DNA of 64,000 bases from Centroscyllium fabricii (lineage: Eukaryota): assembly GCA_051313645.2 (NCBI GenBank), contig JBNRSN020000026.1, positions 36,270,001 to 36,334,000 of the forward strand, read 5' to 3'. A program made the translations under genes and the position numbers. Under the pieces are notes generated by a model, which saw only the letters and a program-made list of their open reading frames with translations, was not told the origin of the DNA and did not search any database. Below, in pieces: positions 1,309 to 54,117 of the stretch (position 1 is the stretch's first letter; each line of letters starts with the position of its first letter).

Positions 1309-4300
1309 GTCATCCTCCACGTTGCTATGACAATAGATTATGGAAAACTTCTAGGTGGAAAAAGATTAATGAAACATTATCAGAAGACGCATAAAGATAT
1401 TCAGTTTAGTTTTGACCAGAAAGCAGAACAATGCACCGTGGGTGGAACATTTTCAGTCATACAGGAACTAAGTGGAGCAATTCATCATTTGCTCAATTTA
1501 AATCCTGACCAAAAAAACAGCGACTGTTACGAAACTGAGCAACACGATGGCTTTCAAAACAGTGCTTCAGATAGTTCAAACAGCATTAGAAAAGTTGCTC
1601 GGATATCAAATGCAGACTTTAATGCCAAGGGGGAAACCAAAACTGGAATGCAAAGTTCTGCACATGGGAGTGTCAGAAGAGACACTGATTTGCAACAAGG
1701 CAGTGAGCGACAGACTGGGAATTTTGAAGATTACACTTTATTGATGGACTCTGATATTTACGTGTATATTCAGAAATTTTATAAAGACAGCTATCAAGAC
1801 ATTTTGCATCAGCACCATGTGGAGGTGTTGGATATTACCAGTGAAGACATCACCACCTTAATTTTGCAAGCGGCTTCTGACTGTTCGGCCAGCGGAGCAT
1901 CACCGCTGCAAGCACATCAAGAACTTTCTAAACTCTACCAGGACTTTGAGGTCAGGCTCCGCAAGGAACAGATCACCAAGAAAGATTTAACTTCTGATGT
2001 CAAACTCCTACAGGGCATCTATGCAAGCCTTCAGGCACAATTCCCCCAAATAAACTTCAATGAAGATGAAAACTATTTTTACCTAATAGGCAGTTCAAAT
2101 GATTGCTCTCTAGCCAAGAAATGGCTGCAGGATTTTAAGGAAGAACTGGAAGCAAGATCACGAAAAGGAAAGCATCCGACTTCAAGCAGACACTCGGAAA
2201 GTCCCCAGGCTAGTACCGGCAGTATACCTCAGTCTATGCAAGAATATGATGGCAACAGTTTGTTTCATCAAGTAGGATTGCCAAAAACAGATGCCAGAAA
2301 AGATCACAAATTGGCTCCAACCTTCATGGGTCTGGGGGAAAATGTCAATACGTTGAAGGCAAGGCACAGACTAGTTGAAGATGATTTGGTTCTGAGACCT
2401 GAGCAAACACATACAGCGGATCAATTGCTGACAGGCCATAGTATCAGGAGTAGTTTACTGATGGATGCCAAGTATCAGTTGAGTTCAGAATTGCAGCAAA
2501 AACCCCGGCTCAGTATTACAGGTAATGAGATGTTTACCTCTGCTGACAAAGCATTAACTAGTGGAACAGGGGAGTTTGTTGTAGCCAACAAAACTGGGGA
2601 AGACACTCCTAAGTACAAAGATTTTTCTGTATTAAGTGGTCAGGCCAAGGAACTCAAGAGTCCTGACAAAACAGGTGAGGACATTCTGTTCAAGGGATAT
2701 GAAGGCTCTTCCATTGTTGGTACAAATAAAGGAGATAAACTTTTCCAACATACCAAAAGTAACAAAGCACATGGTCCTATAAAGCCATACCACTTTGAAA
2801 CGTCAGCGGGTACTCTCTTTCACCAGGGAGAGCTGCTAGGCAACACGCAGACACTCCAGTCTATGACTGCTGCCAAAAGTTCAGAAGGTCAAACATCGAA
2901 ACCATCGCTGAGAAGAACCAACAGTTTTTCCGACTACTTAAGATCAAAACATTCCAGAGACTCTGGCAGCAGTTTGCAAGGAGTACCCACCAAAGTCAGT
3001 CCTGCTGAAAAAGTGCACGTGACTGAAGAACTCCCATTAGATTCAGTTGTGTGGTCTTATCTGAAAGACATCCATGATTCTTTAATCAGCAGCATTACTA
3101 CCAAAAGTGATGTTCTGGTGAATGAACAGATTCAGGGAGATATAACGATCCTAAAATTAACAGCATTGAATAAAGCCAACATCATGGTTGCCAAGCAGGA
3201 CATTTTGTCACTTTACACATCGGTAATGAAGCATTTGACTCAACAGTTTCTTTCATACACAAACCTTGGCATTGAGAACTACACTGAGAAAACGTTGGCG
3301 CAATGGCACAACAGTCTGAAAAATAACTTTCCAGAAGTAAAATTCATCGTAGGTCAGATAGGTTTCCACATTATTGCCACACCTGAACATTGCTTGAACG
3401 TAATAGAAACTTTTAAGCCCAAGTTAAGAGAGACGTTTTTGGAAGGCCGGCCCTTGACAGGAAGTGCGTCCATCTCAGCTTCTAATCAATGCTCATTCAT
3501 CGGCACAGAAAAGTTCAAAGACACGGATGGAGAGGACCTCAGCAGATCTACAGAACATCCTTCATTATTGGGTCAGGTTCCTCATGGCAGGAAGCCAAAT
3601 GGCTTCCATACTCCAGTACACCACATGGATGAAATCAGTCCAAAAAGAACGGCAAAAACAAGAGAAGAGCATCCTTCATTTCAGTCAGATAGCGACCTCA
3701 TTGAAGCTATGGGTCACTTGAGGGTAGATGGAAATTCCAAGAAGAATTGTAATTCTCAGCCAGACGTAGAAGAGGAGTGTCCAAAGAATCAGAAAAGGTA
3801 TTCAAATGAGAGCGATGGCCCTGCATCAAATTCAAGGCAGGAACACAATCCACTTATGGATCAGGGGAAATCACCGAAACCTATTGATGAATACAGTGGT
3901 TCAGAGTTTCTTCAGGATCAGGCTGATTATAAAAGTCAGAAGATGATGAAGCAGATTGGAGATGTAGAGGGATTCAAGGCAAAGAAAGCACTGCCCGATA
4001 AATTTCATTTTACAATCAACAAGCTGGTGAAAGAAAACTATTGGTACGATAAAGAAAGCAGCTTGCATCGCAATAAAGTGGACAGCGGCACACAGTCATT
4101 ACCAGTATTTTCTTACACTAGTACATCAGTGTTGCAACAAAATAGAGAGGGTCCACAGGCCTCCGAGTCAGCTACAAATTCAAGAGACCAAATGCAAGAA
4201 AAATATCTGCAGCAGCAAGATGACAGCGGTGAGACAATGTCGCAAGAAAGGAAGACCTTGAAAAATTCTCAGCAAAATCAACCCAGATGTCCGGCCATAG

Positions 4301-4581
4301 GACTGGACGCACCAGAACTAAACGAATCAACCGTGTCTTGCGATAACTGTAAGAAAATTACGAGGTTATCAGAGATGGGCTGTGGTCACGTTTTGTGTGA
4401 GGAATGTTACACAGTTAATCAGTCATTCTGTCCGGCGTGCTGTCAAATTACTGCCCCAGCGAAAATTGGAAGCCAGCCTCTGGGTATCATGAAGTTCGCA
4501 GTTCTGAACATTGAATTAGCTGGATATCCGAGAGTCTTGACTTTGAAAATAACCTACCACATCCCTGATGGTATCCAGCGG
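1309..4581 (+). CDS. DTX3L-like Deltex E3 ligase, giant internal coding exon (KH-like/low-complexity region, C3HC4 RING, start of DTC domain); upstream exons outside window
   Basis: Acceptor ttattttcctgcag|GTC at 1308/1309 and donor CGG|gtaagt at 4581/4582, both phase 0; open for 1091 codons. RING CDNC-x10-CGH-x2-CEEC-x7-CPAC at 4339-4440, followed by GSQPLGIM...LAGYP...LKITYHIPDGIQ, typical of a Deltex C-terminal domain. Confidence 0.88.
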
Positions 4582-4784
4582 GTAAGTAGTCTGGTTCAGT
4601 TAAGAAGAATTAAATCATTAGTATAATAATGGGCAACTTGTAGGTCTTGTATTGTTTCAGTCAAATTTTGCTTCCAGTTTGTCTTGTGCTGCTGATAGTA
4701 GAAACGACACACTTTTTTGTGGAATGACTATTGATAAATGCCAGTGTAGATATGGTTTGAGAGAGGTTTAGAACTTACAAGATA

Positions 4785-5321
4785 CAGGTTGAGCAGCGTT
4801 AATCCGCCACGGGCGGGACCAGGCCCGTGCCGGGAAATGGAAAAAACCGGGAGAACGAGTTTGGACACTGCGCATGCGCGCCATTCAAAATGGCCGCGCG
4901 CGTGCGCGCAGCATTGCGATTGGCTGGCGCGCGCATGCGCAGATCGGGTACGGGTCCGCATTCGCGTTCCCTCTCCATCGCCTTTCGGGTTGCTGCTGCC
5001 GCCAAGCCGGACTCAGGCTGACAGCTGTTGCCTAGTGACTGTCCGCCTCAGTCACGGGGCTCAGCTGTCGAGAAAATAACCGGCGGCCGTATTGAATTAT
5101 CTGCGCATGCGCTAACCGTCCGGTGACGCATGCGCAGATCATTCAAAACACCCGCAGCTGTTTTGAATGATCTGCGCATGCGCTCGGCGCATGCGCAGAT
5201 CATTCGCTGAAGCCACGATGGGGGCTGCCATTTTGCGCATGCGCAGTGCAGTCGGGGCAATTTGTGCCGGCAGACTGAAGCTGCCGGCTATTAGGGACAC
5301 GGATTAACGGTGCTCAACCTG
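4785..5321. mobile_element. TcMar (pogo/Tigger-like) MITE, family A, rich in GCGCATGCGC
   Basis: 22-bp TIRs CAGGTTGAGCAGCGTTAATCCG / CGGATTAACGGTGCTCAACCTG with TA on both sides. Confidence 0.85.
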
Positions 5322-5617
5322 TAATCATTAAACAGGCATGTGCTGTGGACAGTGTTAATTCTCTGGGGTAAATCTTATGATTCAGCCAAAGCTTATTTCT
5401 AACATTCATAACACACACGGGAGGTAATTTGACTTTGTGCGAGTGTAAAACAAGTGATAGCGAATTGGCAGTCTGTATTCCATCTCTCCCATTTTTTTAA
5501 ATTTCCATTGGCTTCAATCCCATCCCCTGAAATTTAACATTGGTTTTACTTCCCTTGTGTGTGTTTAGAAGGTACACTGTAAAAGGTAGATGCTCCTGTC
5601 GGGCACAGAGCAGAGTT

Positions 5618-6170
5618 TATGGCCGAAAAATTGGTCAGCGCACGGATTGGGGCGCTAACCTCGGCGCAGCGCTAAAATTAGCGCTGGAGCCCCCGATATT
5701 CGCTCTAGTGCCGGCCTTGCAGATTGCAGCACTAAATCAAGCGTTGCACGGGTGCAAACGGCCAATATTCAGGCGCTAAGTGGCGGGCGCGGGTGCAGCG
5801 TTCCATCTGCCACTCCTGGCCTTCCCAGCAACGCCGGCACCAGTCAGCTATTAAAGGGGATGGGGAAATAGTATATGATGTCTCCTCACCTCCCTCTGTA
5901 TCACTACTCACCTCCCTCTGTCTGTCTCCGATCTCCCACATAATGCCCACCGCACGAAAGTGTCTCCCTTTAAAGAACGCCCCAGCGCCCCAACATCACC
6001 TCAGCTACGTTTGTGAAAGCTGGCGCGGGCAGCGCTGGGTGTTAGTTAGGCGGCCGCTCGTCAATTTCGGGTGCAGCCCTGGGGGCGGGCGTTGCACCAG
6101 GATATCAGCAAGGATTCAGGCGCGCCAAGTAGCGCGTGCTAACAGTTAGCACCGGCGCTAATCGCTTGAA
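5618..6170. mobile_element. GC-rich non-autonomous DNA-transposon-like insertion
   Basis: Abrupt GC/CpG-rich block with recurrent AGCGC/GCGCT motifs and loosely inverted ends (CCGAAAAATTGG...CAATTTCGG); TSD not resolved. Confidence 0.4.
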
Positions 6171-6253
6171 AATGCAGTGGTGGAGGACACTGGCTATAAT
6201 CACATGGAATAAAAATCTGCTGCTTTGAATCCTTGTTTTTTTTTTCTTTAAAG

Positions 6254-6465
6254 GAATGTGATCCAAGCCCAGGACAACCATTTGAAGGAGCCAAGTTTAA
6301 TGCCTATTTGCCTGACAATTTTATAGGAAGAAATGTTTTAAAATTGTTAAAGGAAGCCTTTATTAACGGCCTGACCTTCAAAATAGTATCAGCTCCCTTA
6401 GGACGGCACCAGGTAGCATGGAATAATATTCCTCACAAAACAGCTTCAACTGGAGGGAAAACTCA
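6254..6465 (+). CDS. DTX3L-like Deltex E3 ligase, penultimate coding exon (DTC domain)
   Basis: Acceptor ttttctttaaag|GAA and donor CA|gtaagt (phase 2). Encodes ECDPSPGQPFEGAKFNAYLPDNFIGRNVLKLLKEAFINGLTF...WNNIPHKTASTGGKT, matching the Deltex AYLPD/LL..AF...LTF/W..I.HKT motifs. Confidence 0.92.
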
Positions 6466-6714
6466 GTAAGTCTTTTTCCCCTCCACTATTAAACTCTGTA
6501 TGATCGTTCCTTTATTATTTCTACCTTGGCTACAGAAGACTGATCTTTAGCCACTATCAGGTTCAATTTTCTCTCTGCGTTACATTTAGCACACTGGTTA
6601 ATGCATTCACAATTAGTGACTCTTTAAATAGCACAGAGTGGAATTTAAAGAATTTCTTTAGGAAAGAACCTTGGTTAATCGGATGGTCAGAAGAAAAAAA
6701 AAATCAGTGCTAGT

Positions 6715-6939
6715 TGACGTAATAAAGACTTACTACGCTCTTGGTTGGATATAAAGCAAGGCTTTATTCGACTTATAAAACAACATAGAGAGCTAGTTAA
6801 CAGTCACTAGCTTCCTGGTTTCAGATTGTCTCTGTCCAAGGTGGGCCCATGCCCGAGTATTTATACTCCCCAGTCGGCGCCCTCAGCTGGCCGACCAGTA
6901 ACTCTTCCTAAGTTATTTCTGAAGTCGTGTTTTACGACA
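6715..6939 (-). mobile_element. Solo LTR
   Basis: Termini TGACGTAA...TTACGACA; 5-bp flanks CTAGT/CTAGC; minus-strand TATAAA (~6860) and AATAAA (6763-6768) in LTR order. Confidence 0.6.
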
Positions 6940-7397
6940 CTAGCGTTGCAACCCCGTCTGTCAAGCATGGCTCTATGCACAAACAGCTGAATTTTTCAAA
7001 TTATTAAAATGTTTAAATGCAAAAAACATTGACCAGTGTGCTAAAAATATCAGAAGCATTAAACATTTGATTTTGTGTCTACAAGTTGTTATCCAGAAAC
7101 TCTTGTCACCATCCACTGTGACACTGGCTTTTTGACTATGCATCACTGTATACATCGACTTGAAACGTTAACTCTGTTTCTCTCTCCACCGATGCTGCCT
7201 GGCCTGCTGAGTTTCTCCAGCGTTTTCTGTTGTTTTCACTGTATACTATTTTGTCCCCCTTTAATCCTGATCCCTAAACAACTTATCATTTGTTTAGGAA
7301 TAATTGAATTACATGTACATGGAGTGTTAATAGTGGAATTAATGCATGGTCCATCCAATTCCACCATTGCAAGTTCAAGCCCCATTCCGGGACTCAA

Positions 7398-7664
7398 GGC
7401 ACGGTGGCATAGTGGTTAGCACTGTTGCATCACAGCGCTAGGGGCCCGGGTTCAAATCCAGCCTCGGGTGACTTTCTCCCCGTGTCTGCGTGGGTTTCCT
7501 CCGGGTGCCTCCCACAGTCCAAAGATGTGCGGGTTAGGTTGATTGGCCACGATTGACCCTTAGTGTTAGGGGGATTAAATATGTGGGGGGTTACGGGGAT
7601 AGGGTGGGATACGTGTCGGTGCAGGCTCGATGGGCCGAAATGGCCTTTAGGGATTCTATGATTC
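7398..7664 (+). mobile_element. HE1-like V-SINE, internally deleted, short tail
   Basis: tRNA head GGCACGGTGGCATAGTGGTTAGC, partial V-domain, tail GGGCCGAAATGGCC...AGGGATTCTATGATTC. Confidence 0.85.
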
Positions 7665-8420
7665 AAGGCGGACACTGCAGTGCAGTCCAACACCGCCTTC
7701 AGTGTGCCAGTGCAGCCTTCGGTCGCCTGAGAAAAAGAGTGTGTTTGAGGACCAGGACTGGAAACCCGGCACCAAGCTCATGGTCTACAGAGCAGCAGTG
7801 ATACCCGCCCTGCTGTATGCCTCGGAGACATGGACCATGTACAGCAGGCACCTCAAGTCACTGGCGTGGTACCACCAACGCTGCCTCTGCAAGATCCTGT
7901 AAATCCATTGGCAGGATATCCGCACCGTCAGTGTTCTCACTCAGGCCGACATCCCCAGCATTGAAGCTTCGACCACACACGATCAGCTCCGATGGACGGG
8001 TCAGATTGTCCGCATGCCCGATAGAGACTCCCAAAACAAGCGCTCTACTCAGAGCTCTGGCACGGCCCGAGTGCCCCAGGTGGGCAGAGGAAACGCTTCA
8101 AGGACACCCTCAAAGCCTCCTTGAAAAAGTGTAACATCCCCACCGACACCTGGGAATCCATGGCCCAAGACCGCACAAAGTGGAGAAGCATCCGGGAAGG
8201 CGGCGAACAGAGTCTCTTCGCCGGGAGCAAGCGGAAGCCAAGCGCTGGCAGCGCACGTCAACCCAAGCACTCCACCCACCTGTCCCTTCAACCACCGTCT
8301 GCCCCACCTGTGACAGAGACTGTAGATCCCGCACGGGACTCATCAGTCACCTGAAAACTCATTTTTAATGTGGAAGCAAATCATCCCTGGTTCCGAGGGA
8401 CTGCCTAAGACAAAGAAGCA
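7665..8420 (+). mobile_element. RTE/BovB-like LINE 3' fragment (frameshifted RT C-terminus and terminal C2H2 knuckle)
   Basis: Fragments ASAAFGRLRKRV, TKLMVYRAAVIPALLYASETWT...YHQRCLCKIL and CPTCDRDCRSRTGLISHLKTH in shifting frames. Confidence 0.85.
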
Positions 8421-8679
8421 GCAAGCACCAGAGGGGCTATCTTTTGGATGAGATATTAAAGCAAAACACTACCCACTCTGGATGTGAAAGACACAAGAGA
8501 GTATTCCTCCCTCAGTCAACACCATTCAATTAATTTGCTGTTTTCAAATTGACTGCTGTATTCGTCAACAATTCAAAATTGATTCATTGGCTATGAAATG
8601 CTTTGGAAAGTTAAGGGTGCTACTCATAAGATCAAATGGTGGACATACTCATGTTGTCAAGCAGCATTTGTGGAGACGA

Positions 8680-11490
8680 TGATCTTCAGCACTGGAAAAA
8701 GTTAGAGATGTCACTGATTTTAAGCAAGTGCAAGGGCAGGGAAAGGGAGGAAAGAACAAAAAGGAAGGTCTGTGATAGGTGGAAGAAGTGATTAAATGAC
8801 AAAAGGAATAAGAGTAATGGGACAAGAAACAAGGAGTTGTAAATGGCAACAACAGAACCATTACCAGCACCTGCTGTCCAGAAAGTGGTTATGATGTTGA
8901 ACTCATTGTTGCGTCCAAAAAGTTGTAAAGTGCCTAATGGAAAGAGGTGGTGCTGTTCCTAGAGCTTCCTTGGAAGTGTAGGAGGCTAAAGTCAGAGTGG
9001 GGGTGGGACAGAGAATTAAAATGGCAAGCAACCAAAAGCTCAGGGTCACACTTGTCGAGTTAATGGAGGCGAGTTAATGGAGGCGTTCAGCAAAGCAATC
9101 ACCCAAGCTGCATTTGCCCTCCCCAATGTAGAGAAGCAAATACAGTATAGCAAATTGAAGATGTACAAGTAAATTGCTGTTTCACCTGGAAGGAGTGTTC
9201 GGGGACTTAGATGATTGGGAAGGGAGAAGTTGAATGTGCAGGTGTTGCATCTCCTGCCCTTGCAATGGGAAGGTGTTGTGGGAAGGGGAGCGGGTGATTG
9301 AAGAGTGGACCAGGGTTTCGTAGAGGGAACGGCCCTTTTGGAATGCATAAAAAAGGTGAGGGGGTGGTGAGCGGGCGAGCGTTTTCGTTGGAGGTAGGCA
9401 GAGGATGATCGGTTTAATGTGCAGGCTGGTGGGGTGGAAGGCGAGGACAAGAGGAACCCTATTATCGTTCTGCAGAGGGCACAATTGCAGACATGGCTGA
9501 GGGCACCGTCAGCCAAGGTGAAAGGGAATCCTCAGTTAAGAAAAAAAAGACAGTGGAAGCACTGGTATGGAAGGTGGCATCGTCACAACAAATGCAATGG
9601 AGATGGAGAAACTAGAAGATGGAGTCCTTACAGGAAGCGGGGTGGGAAGAAATGTAATCAAGGAGGCTGTGGGAGTCAATGGGCTTCTAGTAAATATTGG
9701 TGGACAGCCTGTTCCCAGAAATAGAGAAGTCGATGAAGGGAAAGAGTCAGATATGGAACATGAAGGCGAGTGAGGGGTGGTAATTGGAAGCAAAGTTGAT
9801 GAAATTTTCCAGTTCGGGGTGAGAATGGGAATTGGCACTAATACACCAGGCATCAATGTACCAGAAAGAGAGATGAGGGAGGGGACCAGTGTAGGACTGG
9901 AACACAAAGAATGTTCCACGTATCCCACAAAAAGCAGGCTTGGCTGGAGAAGTTAAGGTGAACAAGTTCAGCCAGGCGGAGAAGGGTGATGGTGGATCGG
10001 GACTGGTTGGCCACCCTTCAAGGAAGCAGAGGAGGTCCCTCAGGCTATCCTGGAGGGGAGTGGCAGTGAAGAGGGACTGGAGACTGAAAAGGAGATTTAG
10101 GGTCAGGAAACGTAAAACTGTTAAAGTGGTGGATGGCATCTGAAGAGTTGTGGATGTTGGTTGACAGACTTGACAAGGGGAAAAAAGTTGATAGGAAGAA
10201 ACAAGTTCCATAGAAACAAGTTCCATAGAGCAAGAACAGACTGAAATGGGTCTACCAGGGCTGTTCTGTTGTGGATCTTGGGAAGGAAGCAGAAGCAGAC
10301 TGTGCAGGGTTGGGGTTCTGAGGTTTTAGGCCATGGGAAGGAGCGACGGTCTGGGAAATGATGGCTTGATGGTCGGTGTCGTGGTCTGGGTGTTTGAGGT
10401 AGGATGTTCAGCCGCTGCAAGGTAGAGATCTGTTCACCAAACAATAAACCTGCTGACAAGGGTGGTGCTAATGACAATGTCAGGGTTGGATCTGATAGAC
10501 CAGCATGCTAAGCGTTCAGAGGGAGTTAGTTAGTTTAGAGCGAGTGAGGGAAGCAGAGAAATTGAGACGACTGATGTCACACTGGCAGTTCCCAATGAAA
10601 AGATGGAGCGGGCCAGAAGCCAGGAAGGAGGGGTCCAGGTAGAACAATAAATCTGAAGATGGGACAAAGGGTCTGTTGTACCGGGAAGAAAGGGTGACTC
10701 CAGGTCAAAGAAGTGGGCACGAAGGGAAAGGCAACAAAAGAGCAGCTTAGCATCATGTCAGGCTCGAAATTCAGGTGGGGGCATAAGGTGATGAAGTGGA
10801 GGCCTGATCGTTTGGGGTCAAAGAGGATAGTGAAAACACAACAAAAGGACAAGATTGGAAGGCAGGCTGGGATCAGAAGGATCCAGAGAGGCATTGGTAT
10901 CCCAAGAGTTGTTGAAGCTTGCGATTCTGGACACCGGAAAAAGAAAAAAAAAGTGCTGATGAGGTGAAGGATGAAATGGAACGGTGGACAAGGACAACTC
11001 CGGAGTGGAGGTGCTGCTCCTAAAGAGGGAGGTCAAATGTGTGCACAAATATGCGATGCATTGATCTCAGGAAGCGGAGAGCGCGCAGTGGTTCGAGGAA
11101 TGCTGAATATCATGGAGATATCTGTAATCATGGGTGGATCCAAAACATGAAGGGTGGAATTCACGTAGAATAAGTAGGAGCCAGTTGTGGAGGAGAGAGA
11201 TGTGGCTGTGAAAGCGAGTTTTAGTAGATACCTGGGGAGGGGGGGGGCGGAGAACAATGAAGGTGAAGGAAAGAGACAAATGGAAATCCTGTCAGAAGAG
11301 CAGAACTTCAAGGTGGGCATTCCTGAAAGAGAAGCAGCAATAAATTAAGAAGCATAAAATAATGTAGATGCTGGAAATCAGAAATAAAAACAAAAATGCT
11401 GGGGGGGGAAAAACCCATCAGGTCAGGCAGCATCTGTGGCGGGGGTGGGGGAGAAAGTCTGGTTAATGTTTCAGGTCGACAGCCACCTCC
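8680..11490 (-). mobile_element. Decayed Penelope-like retroelement (RT + GIY-YIG remnants) with terminal-repeat remnant at ~11350-11490
   Basis: Minus-strand fragments RVPLVLAFHPTSLHIKPIIL, a CNTC motif, NLLYCIC (upstream of the GIY-YIG core) and FWYIDA (decayed YIDD); many frameshifts. Lies in the last intron of the Deltex-like gene. Confidence 0.75.
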
Positions 11491-11969
11491 AGGACAGCAG
11501 AGGGAAAGAAAAAGGTCTCTGCTATCGTCAAGTCAGTGAAAAAATATACTGCTTGGCTCCTGTAGTTGGCCATTTCAAATGGCAAGCGAACCACTAAAAT
11601 CTAGTTGGTTAGCCAAACCACCTCAATTAGAGTTACCGAATTGTCTTAAGTTTAGAACCCTGGTAACCCAAATTCTCCCCTCCCCCGAGTGCAGCAAGAA
11701 ATTCCTAATAATGTGGCCTTTAAAATGTTTGTTGCTCAGCAGTTTATTGCCTAGAGGGATACATTATTGAATTAATGGCACTATTGAATTGTAGCACTAC
11801 TTCAACATGTTGGTGGGAAGTGTAGAAAGTAATAAAATGGTTGATGTATTGAGGGATCTGCTCTTTAATGCATGGATAAGTTCAGTCACTAAACCCTGCC
11901 TAATGATTAGTTTGTAAAGATTGATTTGGAACAATATTCCTTAAAAACAGCACTCTGGTTTCTTTACAG

Positions 11970-12039
11970 GAATGGTTATCCTGACACAAGCTACTTGAAG
12001 ACTGTTTCGGCTGTTTTGAAGGAATATGGCCTTGAATGA
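11970..12039 (+). CDS. DTX3L-like Deltex E3 ligase, last coding exon (absent from the ORF track)
   Basis: Acceptor ggtttctttacag|G completes the phase-2 codon CA+G, then reads NGYPDTSYLKTVSAVLKEYGLE-TGA, the canonical Deltex GYPD..YL..V...L...G.. terminus. Confidence 0.92.
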
Positions 12040-12340: not shown

Positions 12341-12346
12341 AATAAA
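12341..12346 (+). terminator. Candidate polyadenylation signal of the Deltex-like gene (second AATAAA at 12419-12424)
   Basis: AATAAA about 300 nt after the stop codon in AT-rich sequence. Confidence 0.5.
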
Positions 12347-12575
12347 TGTCACCTACAAGACATTGTTGCTTGTGAACTAATTATGTAGAAAGGTACAATA
12401 TTTTAACGCTACACTGAGAATAAAAACTTATATTTTCCTTAAATAAGCAGTCACCAGGATTGCCAATGATTGATTGTTTCATACAAAATTTGCTCAGAAT
12501 CATGACTTCAGCAAAATGTGGACAAAGTTCCTTGGAAGAGCTACAGGTTCAGAGATATCCAAATTGGCAGAGGAG

Positions 12576-20850: not shown

Positions 20851-21372
20851 TATTGGCTTCAAAGCATTTTATAACTGCCCAACCCCAGCTGGCCACAGCA
20901 AGTGGTCAAACCTGTGCCTCTGGCTGAAGGATGCTATTAGGCAGCATAAATCTGTTCCATCTTGCTGGATCTTTGATCTACATGTAGGGCCAGAAGGACT
21001 ATTCACAGTAGTCGTCTCAAATCATTAGACAAAAAGAGTGCCAAGGCAGAACTACTTCAAGTCAATTTTATGAGATGCTTTTAACAAGGTGTATGATTTT
21101 TTTGGGGGCAGGGGGAAAAAAAAAGGTAAAAAAAAGACAAACTTGTTGCAGGATAGAAGTTGTCTGAAAAGCCCATTTTACCTGTATTAGGATGGTATCT
21201 TGCAAGCAGCAAACCATCTCTAAATACATCTGATTACATGAGTAATCAGTCAGGATTGCTTCCCTGCTTCAAGTTTGTTAGTCATCTGTCCATCTTCAGG
21301 TCATAAAAGGTTAGCACTTTTAGCTAGTTCACAATGTTAATCTCTGCCTTCAATTGGAAACGGTCAAACTCT

Positions 21373-21459
21373 TTAATTTTCAGTCTTCTTTGCTTCAGGG
21401 ACCAGAATGACTTTCCCAATGTTCTTGCGTTCCTGTATTTGCTTAATCGCATCTGCAAT
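21373..21459 (-). CDS. VAT1: VAT1 (synaptic vesicle membrane protein VAT-1, MDR/quinone oxidoreductase family), last coding exon
   Basis: Acceptor tttcctccgccag|ATT; encodes IADAIKQIQERKNIGKVILVPEAKKTEN-TAA; phase 0, compatible with exon 43351-43583. Confidence 0.92.
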   Translation of the reverse strand: MADAIKQIQERKNIGKVILVPEAKKTEN

Positions 21460-22983
21460 CTGGCGGAGGAAAGGAAATTCATACCTTTAAAGAATTGGCA
21501 GCGTCAAACACAAACTGGGAAGACAATGAAAGACCCACTTTGAGATGAACATTCTGTATGGTTTGCTCAATCTTTTACGGGCATTTTAAAGACATTAAAC
21601 CAAACAATTCTTCATTACGGTTAAAAATCCAAACAAAAATCAGTTGAGCAGGCACAGTGTCAATTTAAATATTTAGTAGGAAAGAATCCTCTCCACACAC
21701 GCAGGAACATTTTAAAGCCAAGAAACTAAATCTCATTGAAGTGCTAAAATTTTGGTCCACTAGAAAAGCTGCCAAATGTTTTTTAAAAATTGCTGCATGT
21801 TGCCAAGTGACAATTAGAGTTGATTTGTTGAGCAGATGGTCATGTTGCTTCGCACTTGAATAAAACCCTTCACAGCTGGAGCAATTTTAATCACTGTTGG
21901 TTGGAACACAGGGGGAGGGGGGGAACCAATATAGTCTTGACCACTCCATCCTCCCAGTTCAAGGTAGCTACACAATCGGATCTTTAAAAAAAAATCCTAA
22001 CTTGGGGAAAGGGACAATTTGTTTTTGAAAAGTGCCTGCTGCTGCTCATCAAATCAAAGCCTACAGTTTAATGAAGTAATCAGTGTAGTGATGGCAGTGA
22101 AATACTAGACCGACATTCATCATTCAAATTTTAAAAAAGACACACGCTTAATTAATTGAGGTAAATTTGAGCAAGAATATGGAGCACTTTTTCCTCCCTC
22201 CATTTGCCGAGGTCTGGTGAATTAAAGCAAAACAAAGTTCCCAACATCCCAATGGATTACTTGTGCAATTGCACATCAGCTGCAGTTGTATTACAGCCAG
22301 CGTGAAGCTGGAGCAACACAGGACTACATCCAACCCAAAAGATTACACACAACTCATCAATACAAACTGTATAGTAATCACTCTGGGTATACATAATTTG
22401 GATTGCAAGATCACTAGTTATACTGCAGGCTGTCAATATAAAAATGACATCCAAATATTAACAAAACATAAAGCAGACTGGACCCAACAAGTGCACATTT
22501 CAGTTGCCAATTTGTCCAAAACTCCCCATCTGACAGAAGTCTCCCCCAGCAGATTATGTTTTAACCTGTAGTTGTGGAGTCACCACATGATGGCGCCCCA
22601 TACAAAACCAAATTCTGCAGAAGCCAAGTTCAGCCTTTAGTGACCAAAACCACCGTCCCCAACCACCAAAAAAAGGTGGAATTCAGGAATGGAGTGGTGG
22701 TCTTTGACTTTGTGCTGATTTACAATTGGATTTCAATCAAAACACACCATTTCACCCATTACTGTTAATTCTGTAGGGGTCAAATATTTAATACAGTAGG
22801 AATTTAGGATCTACCAGCCAGAGATGGGTAGCTACAGAATACAGAGGGCAAGACTAAATTTAAGAATAGCTGTCTGAATTCATATACATGGATAGCCAGA
22901 GAAGAATGTGCTTGAGTGCTTCCAAGCACAGACAGCTCCACTCCCTGGCTGCTCAATTTGAAATCTTGGCAGTAGAGGAAAGG

Positions 22984-23245
22984 TGTGGTAACCCTTATAT
23001 GGGTAACCCTTATATGGGTTACCATTGTTGTATACCTGTGTGCAAAGATGCTGCTGGGAGCCAGGTCAGCCACACCCCTGACTCCTCCCCCCAGGTGGGA
23101 GCACTATAAAGGTGTGGTCTGACCCAGCCCCTTTCATTCCTGTATGTGATCTGCCGAGGAGATTAGCTCCATTCTTTATTAATTAAAAGCCTTGTATTAA
23201 CGGTAACTACGAGTCGTCTTTAATTAAGTTAGCGACCACGCTACA
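22984..23245 (+). mobile_element. Solo LTR flanked by a ~90-bp direct duplication
   Basis: Termini TGTGG...CTACA; TATAAA at 23105 and ATTAAA at ~23182; the flanks 22894-22983 and 23247-23332 are near-identical. Confidence 0.7.
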
Positions 23246-23663
23246 AAGCCAGAGAAGAAAGTGCTTGAGTGCTTCCAAGCACAGCTCCACTCCCTGGCTG
23301 CTCAATTTGAAATCTTGGCAGTAGAGGAAAGGATGATTGGCTCCCTCAAAAAGTCCTGTTTCGGTTTACAAAATGCAACAGAATCCTGAAAAACGTAGCT
23401 TTGCACTGACACATGGCATCAAACCCAAGCACCGAGCTGCAAAAGTAAGCCTCAAACAGATTAGGAGGGTATAGTTGTGCTCCATATCCAATACCACCAG
23501 AAGTACAGTACAATGGAATAAACTGGTTCACTCACCATTAAAATGATATAGATAGATAGACAAACTTTAATTAGGGAGGAGGTAAACTAGAATTTAAAAA
23601 TGTCTAAAATTGAGGCGTTTTGACAAGATATAGGGAAGAACTATTTCTACTGGTAAAGGAGTA

Positions 23664-24066
23664 CAGGTTGAGCACCGTTAGTCCGGCAACTTCAATCGTC
23701 CGGCACGAATCCGGTCAACTGGTGCGCGCATGTGCAAAATGGCCGCCATGCGTGGCTGTGCATGCCCGGGCCTCAGACTGCCCTGCGCATGTGCAAAATG
23801 GCCACCATGCATGGCTGTGCATGCCTGGGCCTCCCCCGACTGGTCGGCACATGTGCAATATGGCTGCCGCGCTTGTCTGCGCATGCCTGGGCCTCTCCCG
23901 AACGATTGATGCTTCGGCTAGCGCACGCGCAGACCATTTAAAATTTTGCAGTGGCCATTTTGAATGGTCTGCACATGTGCTAGCCGAAGCATCAATCGTT
24001 CGGATTTTTCAAAAACCCGGCACTGGTCCTGGTCCCAAATGTGCTGGATTAACGGTGTCGGACCTG
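23664..24066. mobile_element. TcMar MITE, family A
   Basis: TA|CAGGTTGAGCACCGTTA...GGATTAACGGTGTCGGACCTG|TA; internal GCGCATG(C/T)GC and AAAATGGCC repeats. Confidence 0.85.
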
Positions 24067-24580
24067 TAAGACCATCACCAAAAAAAAAAGCAGAATATTA
24101 CTTTATTACAATAAGGTTAGGACAAGGAATATACGACAGGTACTAGAAACAGAATCAATAAGAGCTCGGTTTTAAAAAATAAAATGGAAAAAATTTGAGA
24201 AAGTGTTAGGACAGGAAGGGGTATGTGACAGAGACCAAGTGGATAACTTGAAAATACAGCAAATGGTGCATTGAGCCAAATGGCTTCCTCCTTTGTCATC
24301 AAAACTTTATTGCAAGTGTGCATGTGGGTTGTGTTTTTTTCCCCCCCAAAGATGTGGGGGCATAATTTAGTGGCACTATTTATTTTTAGTAGGAGTAGCA
24401 GTGACATTTTAGTAAAGCAGAATTCAGATTTTTAGGCAACGAAATCTCAAATCACCAAACGCCATGATCTTGCCAGGTTAGTCGGAGGTGCAGCACTTCT
24501 CGGCCAGCCCTAAATGAAGCCCTACAAACCAGAACTTAGGAAACCTAGAAAATGAGAAGCAAGCCCAGGTCTGAAGTGAT

Positions 24581-25352
24581 GGGGGAGATTTTTCCGGAAG
24601 GGCGGGAACCTGGCGGGGATTGGTCTGGGTGGCTTCCGGTCCCGCCCGCCCAAACAGCTGGGAAGCCCACGCAATTTTAGTTTAATGAGGTTGTTAAATC
24701 CCCGTCGGCAGGAGCGGGAGGTAATTAGGTCAATCGAGTCGGGCTGCAGCAGAGCTGCGAGGAGTTTGATTTACAGTTCCAGCACTGATTGTTGTCAGTT
24801 CCCATGGCAACACTCCACTGTGACATCAGAGTGGAGTGGAGCCAATGGGAAAGGCCAAGTGCTGGTGACTGACAGGTGGGCGGGCGGGCTCCGAATCCCT
24901 TACAGCTCGCACTGGCTGTGAGGACATGTTCAGAGCGGAGATTGCTCAGTTTCTGCTCACAGCTGATGCTATCTCCTCCAAGGTGCTGGAGGCATGCCAA
25001 GCATTTGGCAGCATGTCTTGCACACCTTGAAGGAGAAAGTAATAAATTCAAGAAGTCACACACCAGGTTATAGTCCAAAAGTAATAACCAGCGCTGTTGG
25101 TTTAAGGTGGCGGGGTTAGGGTGGAAAACACGGCAAAATGGCTGAGGGCCCTTAAAATGGCATAAAGATGGCAATTAAGGGCCCTTAACGAGGTGACGAC
25201 AACCCATCCCTGCCGGCAGGAAGGTTTCGGGACAGGGAATCTGGGTGGGGAAAAATGAGAAAGCGGCGGGGAGGGGCGGGACCTGTCGGTTCTGCTATTT
25301 TGCCGGCCAGGCCGCCCAAAACCCCACTTCACGGGGACATGAAAATCGCCCC
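24581..25352. mobile_element. Non-autonomous DNA element, family C (GGGG.GATTTT...AAAATC.CCCC ends)
   Basis: Short inverted termini; the interior is near-identical to 29519-30333 (inverted), 34373-35142 and the fragment 46726-46900. Confidence 0.8.
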
Positions 25353-25729
25353 GATGTGTGGCTTGAGAGCCCCATGTTGAACAGCTAGACAGCTTGGATT
25401 GTTGTATTATCTCCACTGTCCTTCACTTAACTGTCCTCTTGAGCAATAGGGGTAGCTGAAGCCCACTGCACTGTTCTTAAGCCAACTGGTTACTGAAGAA
25501 ATTGGGGCCATACAGAGTTAGTGGTCCCCATTCCTTTTTTTTGATGCTTTAGTTGAACTTTCATTTGCCTTTTTTTATGGTCAAGAAAAAAAAACCTAAG
25601 TGGCTTCAGCTCCCAAATAGAAAAGATGGGCTTTGAACAGCTCTAGAACTATTGGAACAAATTCACAAACCTGGCAGAGTCCTCCTGCTGAAATGAGGAT
25701 AATACAACAGCAGGAGGACCACCACCAAA

Positions 25730-25965
25730 ATCTTCTGATAAAGGGTCCCAACCCAAAACGTCGACTATTTCTCTCCACCAATGCTGCCTGGCCTGCTGAG
25801 TTTTTCCAGCATTTTCCGTTATACCAAAAAAAGGTAGTTTTGACAAAAGGTCATCGACCTGAAACGTTGACTCTTTCTTCACAGATGATGCCTGACCTGC
25901 TGAGTATCTCCAGCATTTTTTGTTTTTATTTCAGATTTCCAGCATCTGCAGTATTTTCTTTTTGT
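25730..25965 (+). mobile_element. Two tandem Penelope-type terminal-repeat units with degenerate hammerhead motifs
   Basis: Units (C/T)TGA.AA-stem-(G/A)AAACGT...GATGCTGCCTGACCTGCTGAG...CCAGCATTT repeated about 105 bp apart; same family as the units at 7155, 11350 and 35274. Confidence 0.6.
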
Positions 25966-26089
25966 ACCTTATGTAGTGCCCTTAACATGGAAAAGGTCCC
26001 AAGGCACTTCACAGAAATGTAAATCAGACAAAAATTGCCACAAAGCCAAAGGAGGAGAGATTAGACTGAGGTAACAGCTTTGACCCTAA

Positions 26090-26680
26090 TGTAGTCAAGT
26101 GTCACAAGGCTCTTAAATTTTTAAGCGAGAGTCTTAAAGGAGGAGAATGTGATGAAGAGGCATTGAGGTTTTGGGAGGGAAATCCAAAGCTCAGGGCCTA
26201 ACCAGCTGAAGACACAGCCAATGATGGAATGGTGAATGGGGCTGTGCAAGAGGAGCACAAAGTTCGGAGTGTTGTAGGGTTGGAGGAGGAGAGAGAAGAG
26301 AACATGGTGATTTGAACATGTGCAGCTAAGAATTTTAAAGTAGAGCATGGGGGGGGGGGGGGGGGGGGGGGGAGAATCTGGAGTCAATGAAAGGGCAGAA
26401 AGCACATGGGGGAGTGGACTTTGTGGTGCTGGTTAGGGCACAGGTAGCAGAGTTTTGGATGAGCTGATGTTCATGGAGGGAGGAGAATGGGAGGCTGGCC
26501 AGGAGAGCATTGGAATGGGAGCGTCTGGAGGCAGAGGATGGGGTGGAGGTGGGCAATGTTACGGACGTGGAAGTAGGCAGTCTTTTTGAGGGAAGTGATT
26601 AGTTCGGAAGCTCAACTTGGGATGCCGATGTTGTGAACGGTCAACTTCGACCCACACAGTGGCTGGAAAAGGACAACCAG
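26090..26680 (-). mobile_element. L2-like LINE 3' fragment
   Basis: The minus strand reads QLIQNSATCALT... followed by the L2-type tail GGCCCTGAGCTTTGGATTTCCCTCCC...CTCCTTTAAGAC. Confidence 0.55.
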
Positions 26681-29518
26681 AGTCCAGTAAATTCTATGTT
26701 AGCAACACTTTCTTTTAACACACTTGACAAGTAGACACCATTACCTCAACCACTTTTTCCTTAAGCAAATTGAACGGCATAAGTCATCTCATGGGATCAG
26801 GTCATAAAGCTTTTACACATAGTTCGTGGCTCCAAGATATGAAAGCTGAGCTAACCTAGCCACTTTGGAAAGAAGGGTGAAGTGGAAAGCAAGAACAGAA
26901 GGAAGCATGGACCCATGCCTAACCAAACCACCTCTACTATTATTTATAGGATGCTGGACAGCAAATGTCAGTTGGTTTTTCAACCATCATGACATCACTG
27001 AACTGAAGGTGGTGGATGGGCACTGGATTTCATATTTATTATTGTATGTCCTTAACTCATCCAAGTTTGAGGGCCCTTAACCATCAGGATAGGGTTGGAG
27101 AACTGGTGCTTTTTATTTTGTAAAAAGCATAGACCTCAAGGGTATATGACAGGTGTTCAAAATGATGAAGGATTATACACTGTTCAAGTGGATAGCACAG
27201 AGTGTTAGATTTTTATGCCATTAAGCACTTTGGGACCTTTCAAAATCAAAGGCACTATCTAAATGCAGATTGTCGCGGTTGTAGTAAGATTTGTAGGGAG
27301 GACTAGGAGGGATCGGTACAAGTTACAAAAGCAGAGTTCTTTTTGCAGAGAGTCCGTGACCTCTGAATAGGTCGCCAGTACATGCTTCAGTGTGATTTCA
27401 CAGCAAGTCTTCAAAAAGGGGGTTGGTCAAGTTCCATTGCAAATGGAAGACATCAGGAGTTATAGAAGGTAGGTGGTTTCATGGGGACTGGTGATAGTCA
27501 TTATGGTTTCCTGGAGCTTGCTCCATTATCTTTGGAGGTTGGAGAGGAATGTCCCCAAAGTTTGGCCCAAGGTGGGGTTTTAAAAAAAAAAAAAAAAAAA
27601 AAAAAGATTGAGACTATCAGGTGTGGGATCAATGGTGCATGTAGGTCGCACCATGTCGATAGAACCGTGACGGACCAGTCCTTTCCTTAAAATTACATAC
27701 ATTGGGGTGGAGTCAAGGAAAGGAATGGGACTGATTAATAAATTGGCAGAGCAAGATGGCGCCAAACAGCTCCAAACTGCTGTCAATGCTGGTGTTAGTA
27801 GTACTTTAGGGCAAAGTTAAATTTGAAGTGGAAAGAAAAAAACCAGAATTGAATCACATGAAGCAGAGAGAGAAAAGGATTTTGGAAGTCAAATAAAATT
27901 CAAAATGGTTAGAAACAGGCTAGCCAACATCCAAGTCAGGTTAGTGTCAGACTGAAACCCTGCAAACAACTAGATTTTTATGAATTCAGAATTAATCCTC
28001 CCGGAAAAACAAGTTAATGAGAGGAAGGGGCTCTTCACACAGGAAGCTGTAAAGTTCAACTTTGAGTCATCGACACAAGAAACTCACAGCAAGATAGAGG
28101 CTTATGATAATGTGGCTTTATGAACACTCAAAGAATCTCCTATACACACACACACAATGCAAAATAGTGGGACATGCATGTAGAATCTATCCTCAATACC
28201 TTCATTGACAAGTTGGAACAAACACAATTCGGAATTGAGTCAGCCAGCCACCTACTGACTTAAAACCTGAGGTTGCAAAGTGGGAAAAAAAAGGGTCAAT
28301 ACAAGGCACTTTGAGAGAGAGTCCAATGCAACATCCCACACTGAATGTGACTAATCTAATTTAAATTTCGAACGGGCACCTCCCCAACAACTTTCTAAAC
28401 CGTCACAAATGACAAGTTAAACATCCGTTCCATGCAGAAAAAGCAAACCGGTTCTTTGGACAGTGATGCCAAGATGTTAGTGTGTGCAGCTGCTCCCACC
28501 ACCTCAGATACTCGAGGCAACACTGCCACAGCTGCCAACTATTTGCTCTTTATTTAACCTTTAGCACGGTTGGCTTGGCACCCCAGCTCCCAGCTATCAG
28601 CAGAACACCTTCCCATTTGCTTAAAAATCAAATACCACCCCCCCCTCTTCCAAAAACACCGACTGTATATACACTTCACATTCGCATTTGTTCCCCACAT
28701 GCTAGCTTTCCTTCCCACTTTCCAAGGCCACAAACCATATGTGCTAGACAGGGCAGGCACCCACCCCCAGGATACCACCTCCTCAGCCAGTTGCTGAGGC
28801 CCTTTGGAGTGTTCCTTCCTACAGGGAGTCACCCTACCACCACTCAACAGCTCTCTACAATGAAACTGAAAAAATCAAACACAATTTGGGATGGCAAGGC
28901 ACGCAGGAAGGAAAAAAGAAAATTGGGGGTAATTTTAGCAATGGAAATATTGAGATGTAAAATGAGCTTCTGATTTGCTATCTGCGGTTTTACATCAGTC
29001 AAAATTACTCCTTGAATCAGTATTCCTCCACAGTGGCATCACACAGCTCCCCACACCCGTTCTAGTTCCCTGGACCCTCTAGATCAAAATTACATAGGAA
29101 GCTCTGCCACAGAAATAAAAGTAGTCCCAAAATATCACGTATAAATAACGCGGTTACTAAAAAATGAATGAAATCTATATTTCTTCAAATGCTATTTTCT
29201 TCTAACTCACTATGTAACAATTCCTTTTCTAGGAGTGCATTCGGCACCATTTAGAGCAGGATTTGAATCTAAACATGGTCTTCTGCAACCAAGGGTACCA
29301 GGACAGTGACATCTTAACTTGTTGCCAAGCCCTTGAACGCCACCTTATCGAAAGCCTCTAGGGATCTGCACCTATAAAGCGAAGAAATCAGTTCATTGCA
29401 CTTCTTGCCCAAACCGCACCCCCCCCCCACCCCCACCCCCCACCCCACGGGATTTAGAGCAACTCAAAAAAGGAATTCCACTGATGGATACCAGAGCACG
29501 GACACAATGGGGGGGGGG

Positions 29519-30333
29519 GGGGAATTTTCATGTCCCCGTGAGGCGGGGTTTTGGGTGGCCCAGCCGGCAAAATAGCGGAACCGGCAGGTCCCGCCCTCCC
29601 CCGCCGCTTTCTCATTTTTGCCTGCCCAGATTCCCTGCCCCGAAACCTTCCTGCCGCCGACCGGCGGGGATGGGTTGTCACCTCATTAAGGGCCCTTAAT
29701 TGGCATCTTTAATGCCATTTTAAGGGCCCTCAGCCATTTTGCCCTGTTTCCCGCCCTAACCCTGCCACCCTAAACCCCGCTGGGTGAAACCCAGCGGGAG
29801 CACAGCGCTGGTTATTACTGTTGGACTATAACCTGGTGTTGTGGCTTCTTGCATTTATTACTTTCTCCTTCAAGGTGTGAAGGACATGCTGCCAAATGCT
29901 TGGCATGCCTCTAGTACCTTAGAGGAATAAGTAACTCAGTTCTGGCTGCAGCAGCAGCTCGGAGCAGAAACGGAGCAATCTCAGCTCTGAACATGTCCTC
30001 ACAGCCGCTGCGAGCGGTGAGGGATGCTGAGCCCACCCACCCACCTACCTGTCAGTCACCAGCACTTGGCCTTCCCCATTGGCTCCACTCCATGGTGATG
30101 TCACAGTGGAGTGTTTCCATGGGAACTGACAACAACCAGTGCTGGAACTGTCAAACTGCTCGCCGCCCTGCTGCAGCCCGACTCGATTGACCCAATTACC
30201 TCCCGCCGACAGCGATTTAACAACCTAATTAAACTAAAATTGCGTGGCCTTCCCAGCTGTTTGGGCGGGCGGGACCGGAAGCCGCCCAGACCAATCACCA
30301 CCAGGTCCCCGCCCTTCCGGCAAAATCCCCCCC
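29519..30333. mobile_element. Family C element, inverted copy
   Basis: Reverse complement of 24581-25352; the left terminus merges into a G run. Confidence 0.8.
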
Positions 30334-30965
30334 ATGAGTTACTGAAATTCCACCATCCGCTATTGTAGTGGAGGAATCGACTGATTATTTTAAACTGGTC
30401 GACGCCGCCACTAGAATAATGGTGCAGGGAATTTCAGAAGAATTTGTACGCTAGCATCCTGTAACACTGCATTTTCAACTGGTCTCATTCATGTCAAGAT
30501 TATTATTTTTTTTGATTGCATTAAATTGTAGAGCATGACCAGGCTCTCGCAAATGCAGCAAATCAATCGGATTTAAATGGCTAAGTCAAGTCAATGACAG
30601 GCAAGAAGTTTACATATCAAGTTCCTACTATTGAAATAATGTACAGCCCCACAAATATTCTCGCTAAGCAGGCCATTTGTATAATCAGCAACCAGTAAAA
30701 GTTTAAGTATAATCACAGACTGGCGAACAAACCTACAATTTGTATTTTCAGCTGGGTTAACAGAAAGGGCTGTACAATTAACCTGAACACTCTGGATCAC
30801 ATAAAATATATGGCCAGAGTTGCCACTTCTAGCATAAGCTAAAGCAGGCCAGAATCCGGATTCACATGAACAGCAACAGGAGACATGAAGAGCACCTAGC
30901 ACCCACAAAACCCGAGTCACCATCTTTGAGAGGGGAGAAAAAAGAAAGTTTGCTCAATGGTGGAT

Positions 30966-31462
30966 GTGTACAGTATTGGTCTCCTTATTTAAGGAAGGAT
31001 GTAAATGCATTGCTAGCCGTCCAGAGAAGGTTTACTAGACCAATACCTGGAATGGGCAGGTTGTCTAGGCTAGGCTTGTATCCGCTGGAGTGAAGAGTAA
31101 GAGGTGACTTGATCGGAGGGGTCTTGACAGGGTGGATGTGGAGAGGAGGTTTCCTCCTGTGGGAGAATCTAGAACTAGGGGGTCACCGTTTAAAAAAATA
31201 TGGGGTCGCCCATTTAAGACAGATGAGGAGAAATTTCTCAGAGGGTCGTGAGTCTTTGGAACTGTCTTCCTCAGAGCGTGGTGGAAGCAGAGTCTTTGAC
31301 TATTTTTAAGGCAGAGGTAGATCGATTCTGGATAAGGGGGATGAAAGATTATCGGGGGTAGGCGGGAATGTGGAGTAATCAGATCAGCCATGCTCTTATT
31401 GAATAGCAGAGCAGGCTCGAGGGGCCGAGTGGCCTACTCCTGCTTCTAATTCGTTTGTATGA
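30966..31462 (+). mobile_element. CR1 LINE 3' fragment
   Basis: CVQYWSPYLRKDVNALLAVQRRFTRPIPG, then the CR1 3' tail GATCAGCCATG...GAGCAGGCTCGAGGGGCCGAGTGGCCTACTCCTGCT. Confidence 0.85.
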
Positions 31463-32232
31463 ATGAGAGATGAGATGATCAATACCTTTAGACTTGGGCC
31501 CCTAGTTCCAGCAGCAGCAATCTTTGGTTCAAATGGACAACAAGTTAATGTAGAATTCAAACAAACAGGTCTGTCTTTACAAAATTTGAACATGTTACTT
31601 CCTTACATCTTTTTATACTGGCCAGTATCTTATTTCTCCTTAAAATGCTTAGTTGGCCCCAGAAAATAGCATTGTTGCAGTCTGTCTTGACTTTCAGGAT
31701 TTAAGAACAGGTGGCCCATGAAACAGTGCAGTGTTAAATAGAACATGTTATTCCAGGGATTTAATAGGATTCTAAAGTGCCTGACAACTAGATTTAACAT
31801 TCAGCACTGGAGCACAAACCCAGATACCAACTTACATATGGAGACTCGGTCACTATTTGGCATTTTCAATATTGGCAGCTTTACCAACTAGTTCATTATT
31901 GATTAATGACCACGCTCAAAATTTTAGACATTCAAATCTTGAAGCAAGTTTAGCCACAGAAACTTACAGCAGAGTCATTTTGATAATCATGTCGCTGCTA
32001 GAATAATCCAAATCTAAACCCATTGTCCCATAGGCCCTGCACTATGCTCCACTTTAATAGGTTGCCCTAAAGTAGACACTGCCTCAAGTACTGTGTGGTA
32101 AAGCGCGTCACACTCCCAACAAGTACGGGTGAAGAAATTTCACCCAGCCTTCTCAACTCACTTCCGAACTAGAGAGCACAGCCTTTCCCTATTTGCCGTC
32201 AAAACCATGCGACTTATCCTTTTCCCCTATAG

Positions 32233-41124: not shown

Positions 41125-41164
41125 GTGCGAACATTTCACATTCTCAAGACCTCCCAAAGTTCTT

Positions 41165-54082: not shown

Positions 54083-54117
<35 letters not shown>

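Follow-up and report, generated by a model that had tools for sequence, protein, structure and literature searches.

A conserved Deltex gene of jawed vertebrates with a replaced DTC pocket and a degenerate RING, likely the ohnolog of RBM43

The 64,000-nucleotide stretch of the Centroscyllium fabricii genome analysed here (contig JBNRSN020000026.1, positions 36,270,001 to 36,334,000; the window) holds all but the first two coding exons of a gene of the si:busm1-163l24.3 family, a name carried by several of its close protein matches and already proposed, from zebrafish, in the original prediction. The gene is conserved from chimaera to birds and, judged from its sequence, probably encodes not a ubiquitin ligase but an enzymatically dead Deltex scaffold or decoy that interferon induces. 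Loss of the catalytic His/Glu pair, taken together with an influenza-induced duck copy, makes it likely that the protein takes part in interferon responses as a partner or decoy without enzymatic activity. The spliced gene begins about 11 kb to the left of the first base of the window and comprises five coding exons, which encode 1,277 residues in a single open frame with GT-AG introns; the domains follow one another, from N to C terminus, as an RRM/NID-like domain, a KH-like domain, a KH pair, a disordered region, a second KH pair, a second disordered region, a RING and a DTC (Table 1). Both introns within the DTC are GT-AG, in phase 0 (4582-6253) and phase 2 (6466-11969). At the 4581/6254 junction, a GT..AG intron is removed in transcript-like contigs from three of four sequencing runs of relatives (runs guessed to be RNA), and the fourth, genomic run reads through from 4581 into the intron; the 6465/11970 junction is predicted from splice signals and full-length orthologs. 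No RNA run on record was found to contain the shark stretch itself. The intact frame and splice sites described previously are upheld, and the open 1,277-codon frame and the spliced contigs of relatives rule out a pseudogene.

In DTX2, His582 and Glu608 are catalytic and have been called strictly conserved in Deltex proteins (PMC7615817), and the contacts of the ADP-ribose pocket, including the role of Arg535, have been described (PMC7442474). Chain alignment places H707, Y719 and E733 of DTX3L, the three residues that the original prediction had followed, at DTX2 H582, H594 and E608, in agreement with PMC11460948, where H707A is reported to abolish and E733A to impair formation of ubiquitin-DNA. 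DTX2 numbers were assigned by a self-consistent count along the chain, Trp578 and His582 being the W and first H of WxxIHHK and Arg535 the Arg that precedes YLP. The family was represented by 162 proteins picked by KH-profile score, not by the columns under test; removal of 14 with cut or alternative C termini left 148 rows (144 distinct DTC strings), which include isoforms and many birds. Across these rows the His582 site is occupied by Pro in 141, Ser in 3, Leu in 3, Ile in 1 and His in none, and the 594 site by Asn in 132 and His in 2; Glu is found at the Glu608 site in a single row (147 non-Glu), and Phe replaces Arg535 in all 148. By comparison, 63 other long DTC proteins, three of them family fragments, have Arg in 60, His in 54 and Glu in 54. 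The counts rule out substitutions that are private to this species or neutral, and a maintained Deltex subfamily that has lost the ADP-ribose-ubiquitylating His and Glu, as had been proposed from this one sequence, extends to essentially all orthologs. The Pro, Asn, Val, Phe and Asp (6260-6262) codons that had been read in the window are all present in the spliced frame. The Phe is a family trait. The Asp, at the His of HPxPG, is confined to part of the family (Asp in 106 rows and His in 38 of the 148). Among the rows that deviate at the His582 site (P0060, P0061, P0064, P0081, P0019, P0030 and P0071), the salamanders have Ser or Ile, and Leu is found in two caecilians and a pigeon; constraint on Pro is weak, yet His never returns.

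The phosphate-binding loop is altered as well. Contrary to what had been stated, the DTC is not free of gaps: alignment to the human DTX3L, DTX2 and DTX1 chains shows two one-residue gaps relative to DTX3L, both in the phosphate-binding loop, and the T-x-G-x-S motif of this loop is gone family-wide. Basic residues of the GGK..N loop are conserved in the family (Lys 85%). Among the DTX2-ADP-ribose contacts and the catalytic pair, Trp578 alone survives. The fold, by contrast with the pocket, is retained according to sequence profiles and models. Pfam DTC is matched at E = 1.4e-15 by exon 4 and at 1e-26 to 1e-35 by full orthologs, and the AlphaFold model of the RING-DTC of a sawshark ortholog (predicted local distance difference test, pLDDT, 87) superposes with a Z score of 18.4 on the DTX3L DTC (3PG6). 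The same model matches the DTX2-ADP-ribose complex (Z 17.7, r.m.s.d. 2.4), which, together with the retained Trp578 and the conserved basic residues of the GGK..N loop, could suggest that other residues still enable the DTC to bind, or to ubiquitylate, a nucleotide-like ligand. We consider this highly improbable, as five of the six known contact or catalytic sites are altered, the sole His conserved in the family is a neighbour common to all Deltex DTCs, and the 148-row alignment contains no family-specific conserved His or Glu able to substitute.

The RING, previously described as intact, does have its eight zinc ligands in this shark. However, Asn occupies the site of the Ile that binds the ubiquitin-conjugating enzyme (E2), the central helix is shortened and the domain falls below every Pfam RING cut-off, as do all eight family proteins scored, whereas a DTX3L control reaches one. 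All eight ligands are found in 35 of the 148 rows, and Ile, Val or Leu at the E2 site in 4 of those 35 (a count that is alignment-dependent for teleosts). In DTX1, Ile413 binds the E2 and the length of the RING-DTC linker is reported to be strictly conserved (PMC7500938); the distance from the last RING Cys to the start of the DTC is 8-14 residues in the 30 family rows shown, versus 13 in two DTX3L rows. When family and DTX3L are compared across identical species pairs, the RINGs are 38% identical in the family versus 89% in DTX3L (to Chiloscyllium) and 14% versus 58% (to Prinia), and the corresponding DTC values are 62% versus 80% and 48% versus 62%. In myliobatoid rays, lizards, hyloid frogs, crocodilians and many birds the RING has collapsed or lacks ligands, and their DTC persists. 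Through decay of the RING and fixed replacement in the DTC, the catalytic unit appears to have been disarmed in each of its halves. An intact single-exon E2 was sought for modelling with the RING, and none was found.

A duck ortholog of the gene responds to infection. Duck LOC101790937 is a family member and its ortholog, and among the rows listed in Supplementary File 5 of PMC10011077 it is up in nine duck H5N1 sheets (brain, lung and ileum; log fold change 2.05-4.63, a 4-25-fold induction). The same source gives it an entry separate from duck IFI35; six of these nine sheets also show DTX3L up, and VAT1 appears, among the rows listed, only in two turkey sheets. A strict match to the interferon-stimulated response element (ISRE) lies 7.9 kb before the ATG (0.03 matches expected by chance on average, and at least one in 6 of 200 shuffles); only one other strict match occurs in the 530 kb of loci scanned, in the DTX3L locus. 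The chicken ortholog (P0066; XP_024999787.1) was once labelled 'interferon-induced 35 kDa protein isoform X1' and later LOC121106446, and duck and turkey LOC genes are mapped to chicken 'IFI35' in PMC10011077. Because of this label, some avian 'IFI35' expression values may include si:busm1-163l24.3, an annotation trap.

The host's closest matches are from cartilaginous fish. A protein search recovered 29 proteins among 439 candidates, of which 27 belong to the family and 2 are bird DTX3L, and a wider search found at least 139 among 8,000 scored. The 120 matches listed come from sharks, coelacanth, teleosts, caecilians, salamanders, frogs, turtles, crocodilians, tuatara, lizards and birds, a range much wider than the fish family that had been assumed, and a search of representatives (best 150 of 3,347, with 20 of the 150 looked up) added chimaera, paddlefish and Xenopus. 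None of the 120 matches listed out of 139 (8,000 scored) was named as mammalian, in a protein search that did not extend to mammalian genomes; all 40 family rows among the best 150 of 3,347 are nearest to fish, amphibian or sauropsid members. Since matches lie only in these groups, mammals probably lost the gene. In a DTC tree of 55 rows subsampled from 210 (116 columns, trait columns taken out), the family forms one clade from chimaera to birds with support of 99/97 and does not group with DTX3L. At least five DTC loci were detected in this genome, namely DTX3L, three of DTX1/2/4 type and the present gene, with no separate DTX3 among the loci listed, these counts being lower bounds. The DTX3L, on contig C711, is canonical, which rules out a mis-annotated DTX3L. 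Two candidate relatives were also rejected: P0149 as a sister, its Phe being an alignment artefact, and, as a pro-ortholog, a His-to-Pro protein of the tunicate Styela clava (P0197), which retains the Arg and a good RING, lies outside the clade, and has an RRM and three DTC-like domains with the change in the last. In the tandem-DTC proteins listed (P0147, P0152 and others, among them one from the diatom Cylindrotheca), a His-DTC is often combined with a Pro-DTC, most without the Glu, which amounts to an independent pseudo-DTC radiation. A literature search found no paper describing si:busm1-163l24.3.

The N-terminal half of the protein, which the original prediction had not considered, is of RBM43 type. 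The start of exon 3 has its best non-self genome match on another contig, C1377, in a gene of identical exon layout that ends after the KH pair, within exon 3; the Atlas clusters closest to this gene are RBM43 (0.89, a lead). Pfam KH_I_RBM43 (PF26774) is matched by most members of the family. The family profiles score the RBM43-like gene on C1377 well above DTX3L, both for the KH pair (65 versus 16-21 bits) and for the RRM (53 versus 5-12 bits), and a KH tree unites the family with RBM43-like genes (Shimodaira-Hasegawa-like approximate likelihood ratio test, 94), on long branches. At the other end of the protein, the two introns of the DTC have the positions and phases of those in the shark's own DTX3L, unlike those of its three DTX1/2/4-type loci. 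Gene order, in turn, points to RBM43. On the contig of the window, C778, NID exons at 36.17 and 36.21 Mb are followed by the si:busm1-163l24.3 gene, a VAT1-like gene and an RND-type GTPase at 36.43-36.53 Mb; on C1377, NID exons at 39.34-39.35 Mb are followed by the RBM43-like gene at 39.40 Mb and the closest RND paralog at 40.78 Mb, with the same relative strands throughout the mirrored order. The RND exons were found by other genome searches, being absent from the listing of a Ras-family scan. As the series IFI35-like, present gene, VAT1 and RND mirrors the series NMI-like, RBM43-like and RND, the gene is likely, on sequence grounds, the ohnolog of RBM43 that kept a dead RING-DTC, a paralogon that had escaped the earlier reading, as had the infection response of a bird ortholog. 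Ohnology is the simplest reading; an RBM43-like gene may instead have been fused later to a DTX3L-type tail. Two more RBM43-type genes with the same exon layout in their RRM exons lie on C1155 (G000:C1155:236773086-236778683 and 201464954-201467744); a KH exon was found for the former and a DTC match for neither, and one of the two may be si:dkey-154b15.1 (Atlas lead). The papers found that pair RBM43 with DTX3L, or with NMI and IFI35, are, judged by title, expression studies.

Several observations weigh against a dead interferon-induced scaffold or decoy that descends alongside RBM43. The names IFI35, NMI, VAT1, RND2 and RND3 of the shark loci and the human gene order are ones that we take from motifs and human synteny. 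The induction is by infection in birds, not by interferon treatment, IFI35 read-through may contribute to it, and the ISRE is not linked to a mapped start site. Independent His-to-Pro changes in other DTCs, in the tunicate protein and in tandem-DTC proteins including the diatom's, may reflect an easy loss of function and not a new design. The eight zinc ligands persist in this shark, most chondrichthyans, coelacanth, turtles and many amphibians, and some RINGs function without the canonical Ile, so lysine-directed ubiquitin ligase (E3) activity is possible. The protein could then be a still active E3 whose RING recruits an E2 and whose altered DTC holds a protein substrate of a new kind. The sawshark model does fold a RING-like domain (best RING match Z 6.4; block pLDDT 74-85), and DTX1 pocket mutants are reported to retain lysine discharge (PMC7500938). 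This account is nonetheless unlikely, given a RING that diverges much faster than that of DTX3L, has collapsed in entire lineages that retain the DTC and lacks the Ile in most rows; activity could survive in some lineages only. The protein-E3 activity expected in the original prediction accordingly finds no support in the sequences.

Short-range constraint is a further difficulty. Over the first 313 codons of exon 3, 34 listed places contain 24 non-synonymous and 9 synonymous codon differences, so that the ratio of non-synonymous to synonymous change (pN/pS) in this N-terminal sample is about 0.7 and constraint is weak or modest; family orthologs were compared as protein sequences only. In 8 of 11 shark/ray pairs, moreover, DTC identity falls below that of a disordered linker, and among 126 DTC columns in 13 chondrichthyans 34 are invariant and 44 have four or more states. 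Such a pattern would be expected of a bait, that is, an inactive mimic of DTX3L that would sequester pathogen proteins directed against the RING-DTC surface of DTX3L, where rapidly evolving codons are reported to cluster (10.64898/2026.04.23.720386). A bait seems rather improbable to us: the 16 bony-vertebrate pairs have a DTC at least as conserved as the linker, the pairs are not independent, and relaxed constraint would look identical, the pattern fitting relaxed or diversifying selection alike. Alternatively, the RING-DTC might be a functionless remnant on an RBM43-like RNA-binding gene, as the modest pN/pS, the RBM43-like paralogs without RING-DTC and some bird isoforms that finish in a different last exon (12 rows out of 140 were dropped) could be taken to mean. 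This explanation is scarcely credible, since over deep time the DTC is the best-conserved region of the protein (46-52% identity from shark to bony vertebrates versus 3-26% for the linkers), with 42 columns at least 90% conserved across family rows.

Comparison with known systems places the gene between two of them. It shares with DTX3L (BBAP) the order RRM, KH-like repeats, C3HC4 RING and DTC, as well as the DTC introns and fold and the response to the same duck infections, but differs from it in its replaced His/Glu, Arg, aromatic residue and phosphate loop, degenerate RING, long disordered inserts (1,277 versus about 740 residues), location beside IFI35/VAT1 and separate clade. With RBM43 it shares the RRM/NID-like and KH N terminus, the three-exon layout and the place between an NMI/IFI35-type gene and an RND gene; the RBM43-like gene, however, ends within exon 3, without second KH pair, RING or DTC. 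DTX1, DTX2 and DTX4 have the same RING-DTC fold (6Y3J, 6Y5P), but the present protein lacks their WWE domains, intron positions and pocket residues. Non-catalytic RING partners of the BARD1 type, which have a zinc-binding RING without the E2-binding Ile, offer an analogy, although in many si:busm1-163l24.3 lineages the zinc ligands themselves are lost. As far as its sequence tells, the protein is a Deltex by descent and fold, yet without the catalytic residues of one. A survey of Deltex evolution counts five paralogs, and its main text does not mention RBM43 or IFI35 (10.64898/2026.04.23.720386).

A dead Deltex scaffold or decoy could have arisen and work as follows. A DTX3L-like ancestor (RRM-KH-RING-DTC) located beside the ancestor of NMI and IFI35 would have been copied in the genome duplications of early vertebrates. 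Truncation after the first KH pair would have turned one of the copies into RBM43, and the other would have retained a disarmed RING-DTC. Interferon would induce the gene together with IFI35 and DTX3L; mouse Rbm43 is itself reported to be interferon-induced (10.1101/2023.01.06.522985). The RRM/KH half may bind RNA or the KH-type partners of the DTX3L/PARP9/PARP14 system, in which KH-like domains mediate DTX3L self-association and binding to PARP9 and PARP14 (PMC11080071, PMC10955461), and the remodelled DTC (invariant Phe, Trp and Pro, GGK..NGYPD) may offer a surface to which a protein or nucleic acid binds without being modified. More tentatively, and with less confidence than not, we propose that the gene is the sixth Deltex of non-mammalian jawed vertebrates and the full-length ohnolog of RBM43, a dedicated interferon-induced pseudo-ligase that joins DTX3L/PARP9/PARP14 or IFI35/NMI through its RRM/KH domains and whose repurposed DTC pocket tunes ADP-ribose ubiquitylation or decoys pathogen antagonists; human RBM43 would then be what survives, in truncated form, of that DTX3L-like lineage. 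Mammals do have RBM43, and this interferon-induced regulator with little structural context would become tied to the DTX3L lineage. A natural dead Deltex paralog kept for some 450 million years would give studies of ADP-ribose and nucleic-acid ubiquitylation a ready separation-of-function control, and its persistence points to a non-catalytic role of the DTC.

Table 1. Features of the si:busm1-163l24.3 gene and its surroundings (window positions unless a contig is given).
Feature	Position	Strand	Remark
Coding exons 1-2 (RRM/NID-like domain)	G000:C778:36259000-36259174 and 36268061-36268164		Outside the window
Coding exon 3 (1,091 codons), with the KH-like domains, the disordered linkers, the RING and the first third of the DTC	1309..4581	+	Covered by transcript-like contigs of relatives
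First KH-like domain, likely KH_I_RBM43 match (PF26774)	1309..1524	+	Precomputed Pfam of orthologs; boundaries approximate
KH-like pair 1	1714..2136	+	Pfam KH_DTX3L E 1.3e-11; nearest own-genome match the RBM43-like gene
KH-like pair 2, not in RBM43-like paralog	3010..3432	+	Pfam: two KH_DTX3L stretches; boundaries from family profile, approximate
Degenerate C3HC4 RING: eight ligands, Asn (4345-4347) at E2-binding Ile site, short central helix	4339..4440	+	
DTC domain, first part	4483..4581	+	Pfam DTC
Coding exon 4, DTC core	6254..6465	+	Pfam DTC; junction spliced in three runs
Phe at DTX2 Arg535 (diphosphate-binding) site	6296..6298	+	148/148 family rows
Phosphate-binding loop (DTX2 Ser567/Ser568), two residues shorter, no T-x-G-x-S motif	6380..6412	+	
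Trp at DTX2 Trp578, sole pocket contact retained	6419..6421	+	148/148, but Trp served as intact-row filter
Pro in place of catalytic His (DTX2 H582 / DTX3L H707)	6431..6433	+	
Coding exon 5: Asn 11971-11973 (H594/Y719 site), Val 12013-12015 (E608/E733 site), stop	11970..12039	+	
Two AATAAA signals	12341..12424	+	
VAT1-like gene, tail-to-tail neighbour, first exon just right of the window	21372..64000	-	Pfam ADH_zinc_N_2 only E 0.002

The transcript probably ends near 12410, as a relative's contig extends 438 bases beyond exon 4, consistent with the AATAAA signals. The tail-to-tail neighbour is presumably VAT1-like, a name that we assign from sequence features and synteny. Its intron contains a frameshifted gypsy-like gag-pol element (about 36900-40750), with a stretch of N close by at 41165-41299. 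Intron 3 of the si:busm1-163l24.3 gene contains, at 4783-5323, an element resembling a miniature inverted-repeat transposable element; its terminal inverted repeats are 24 bases long, and palindromic repeats lie inside it.

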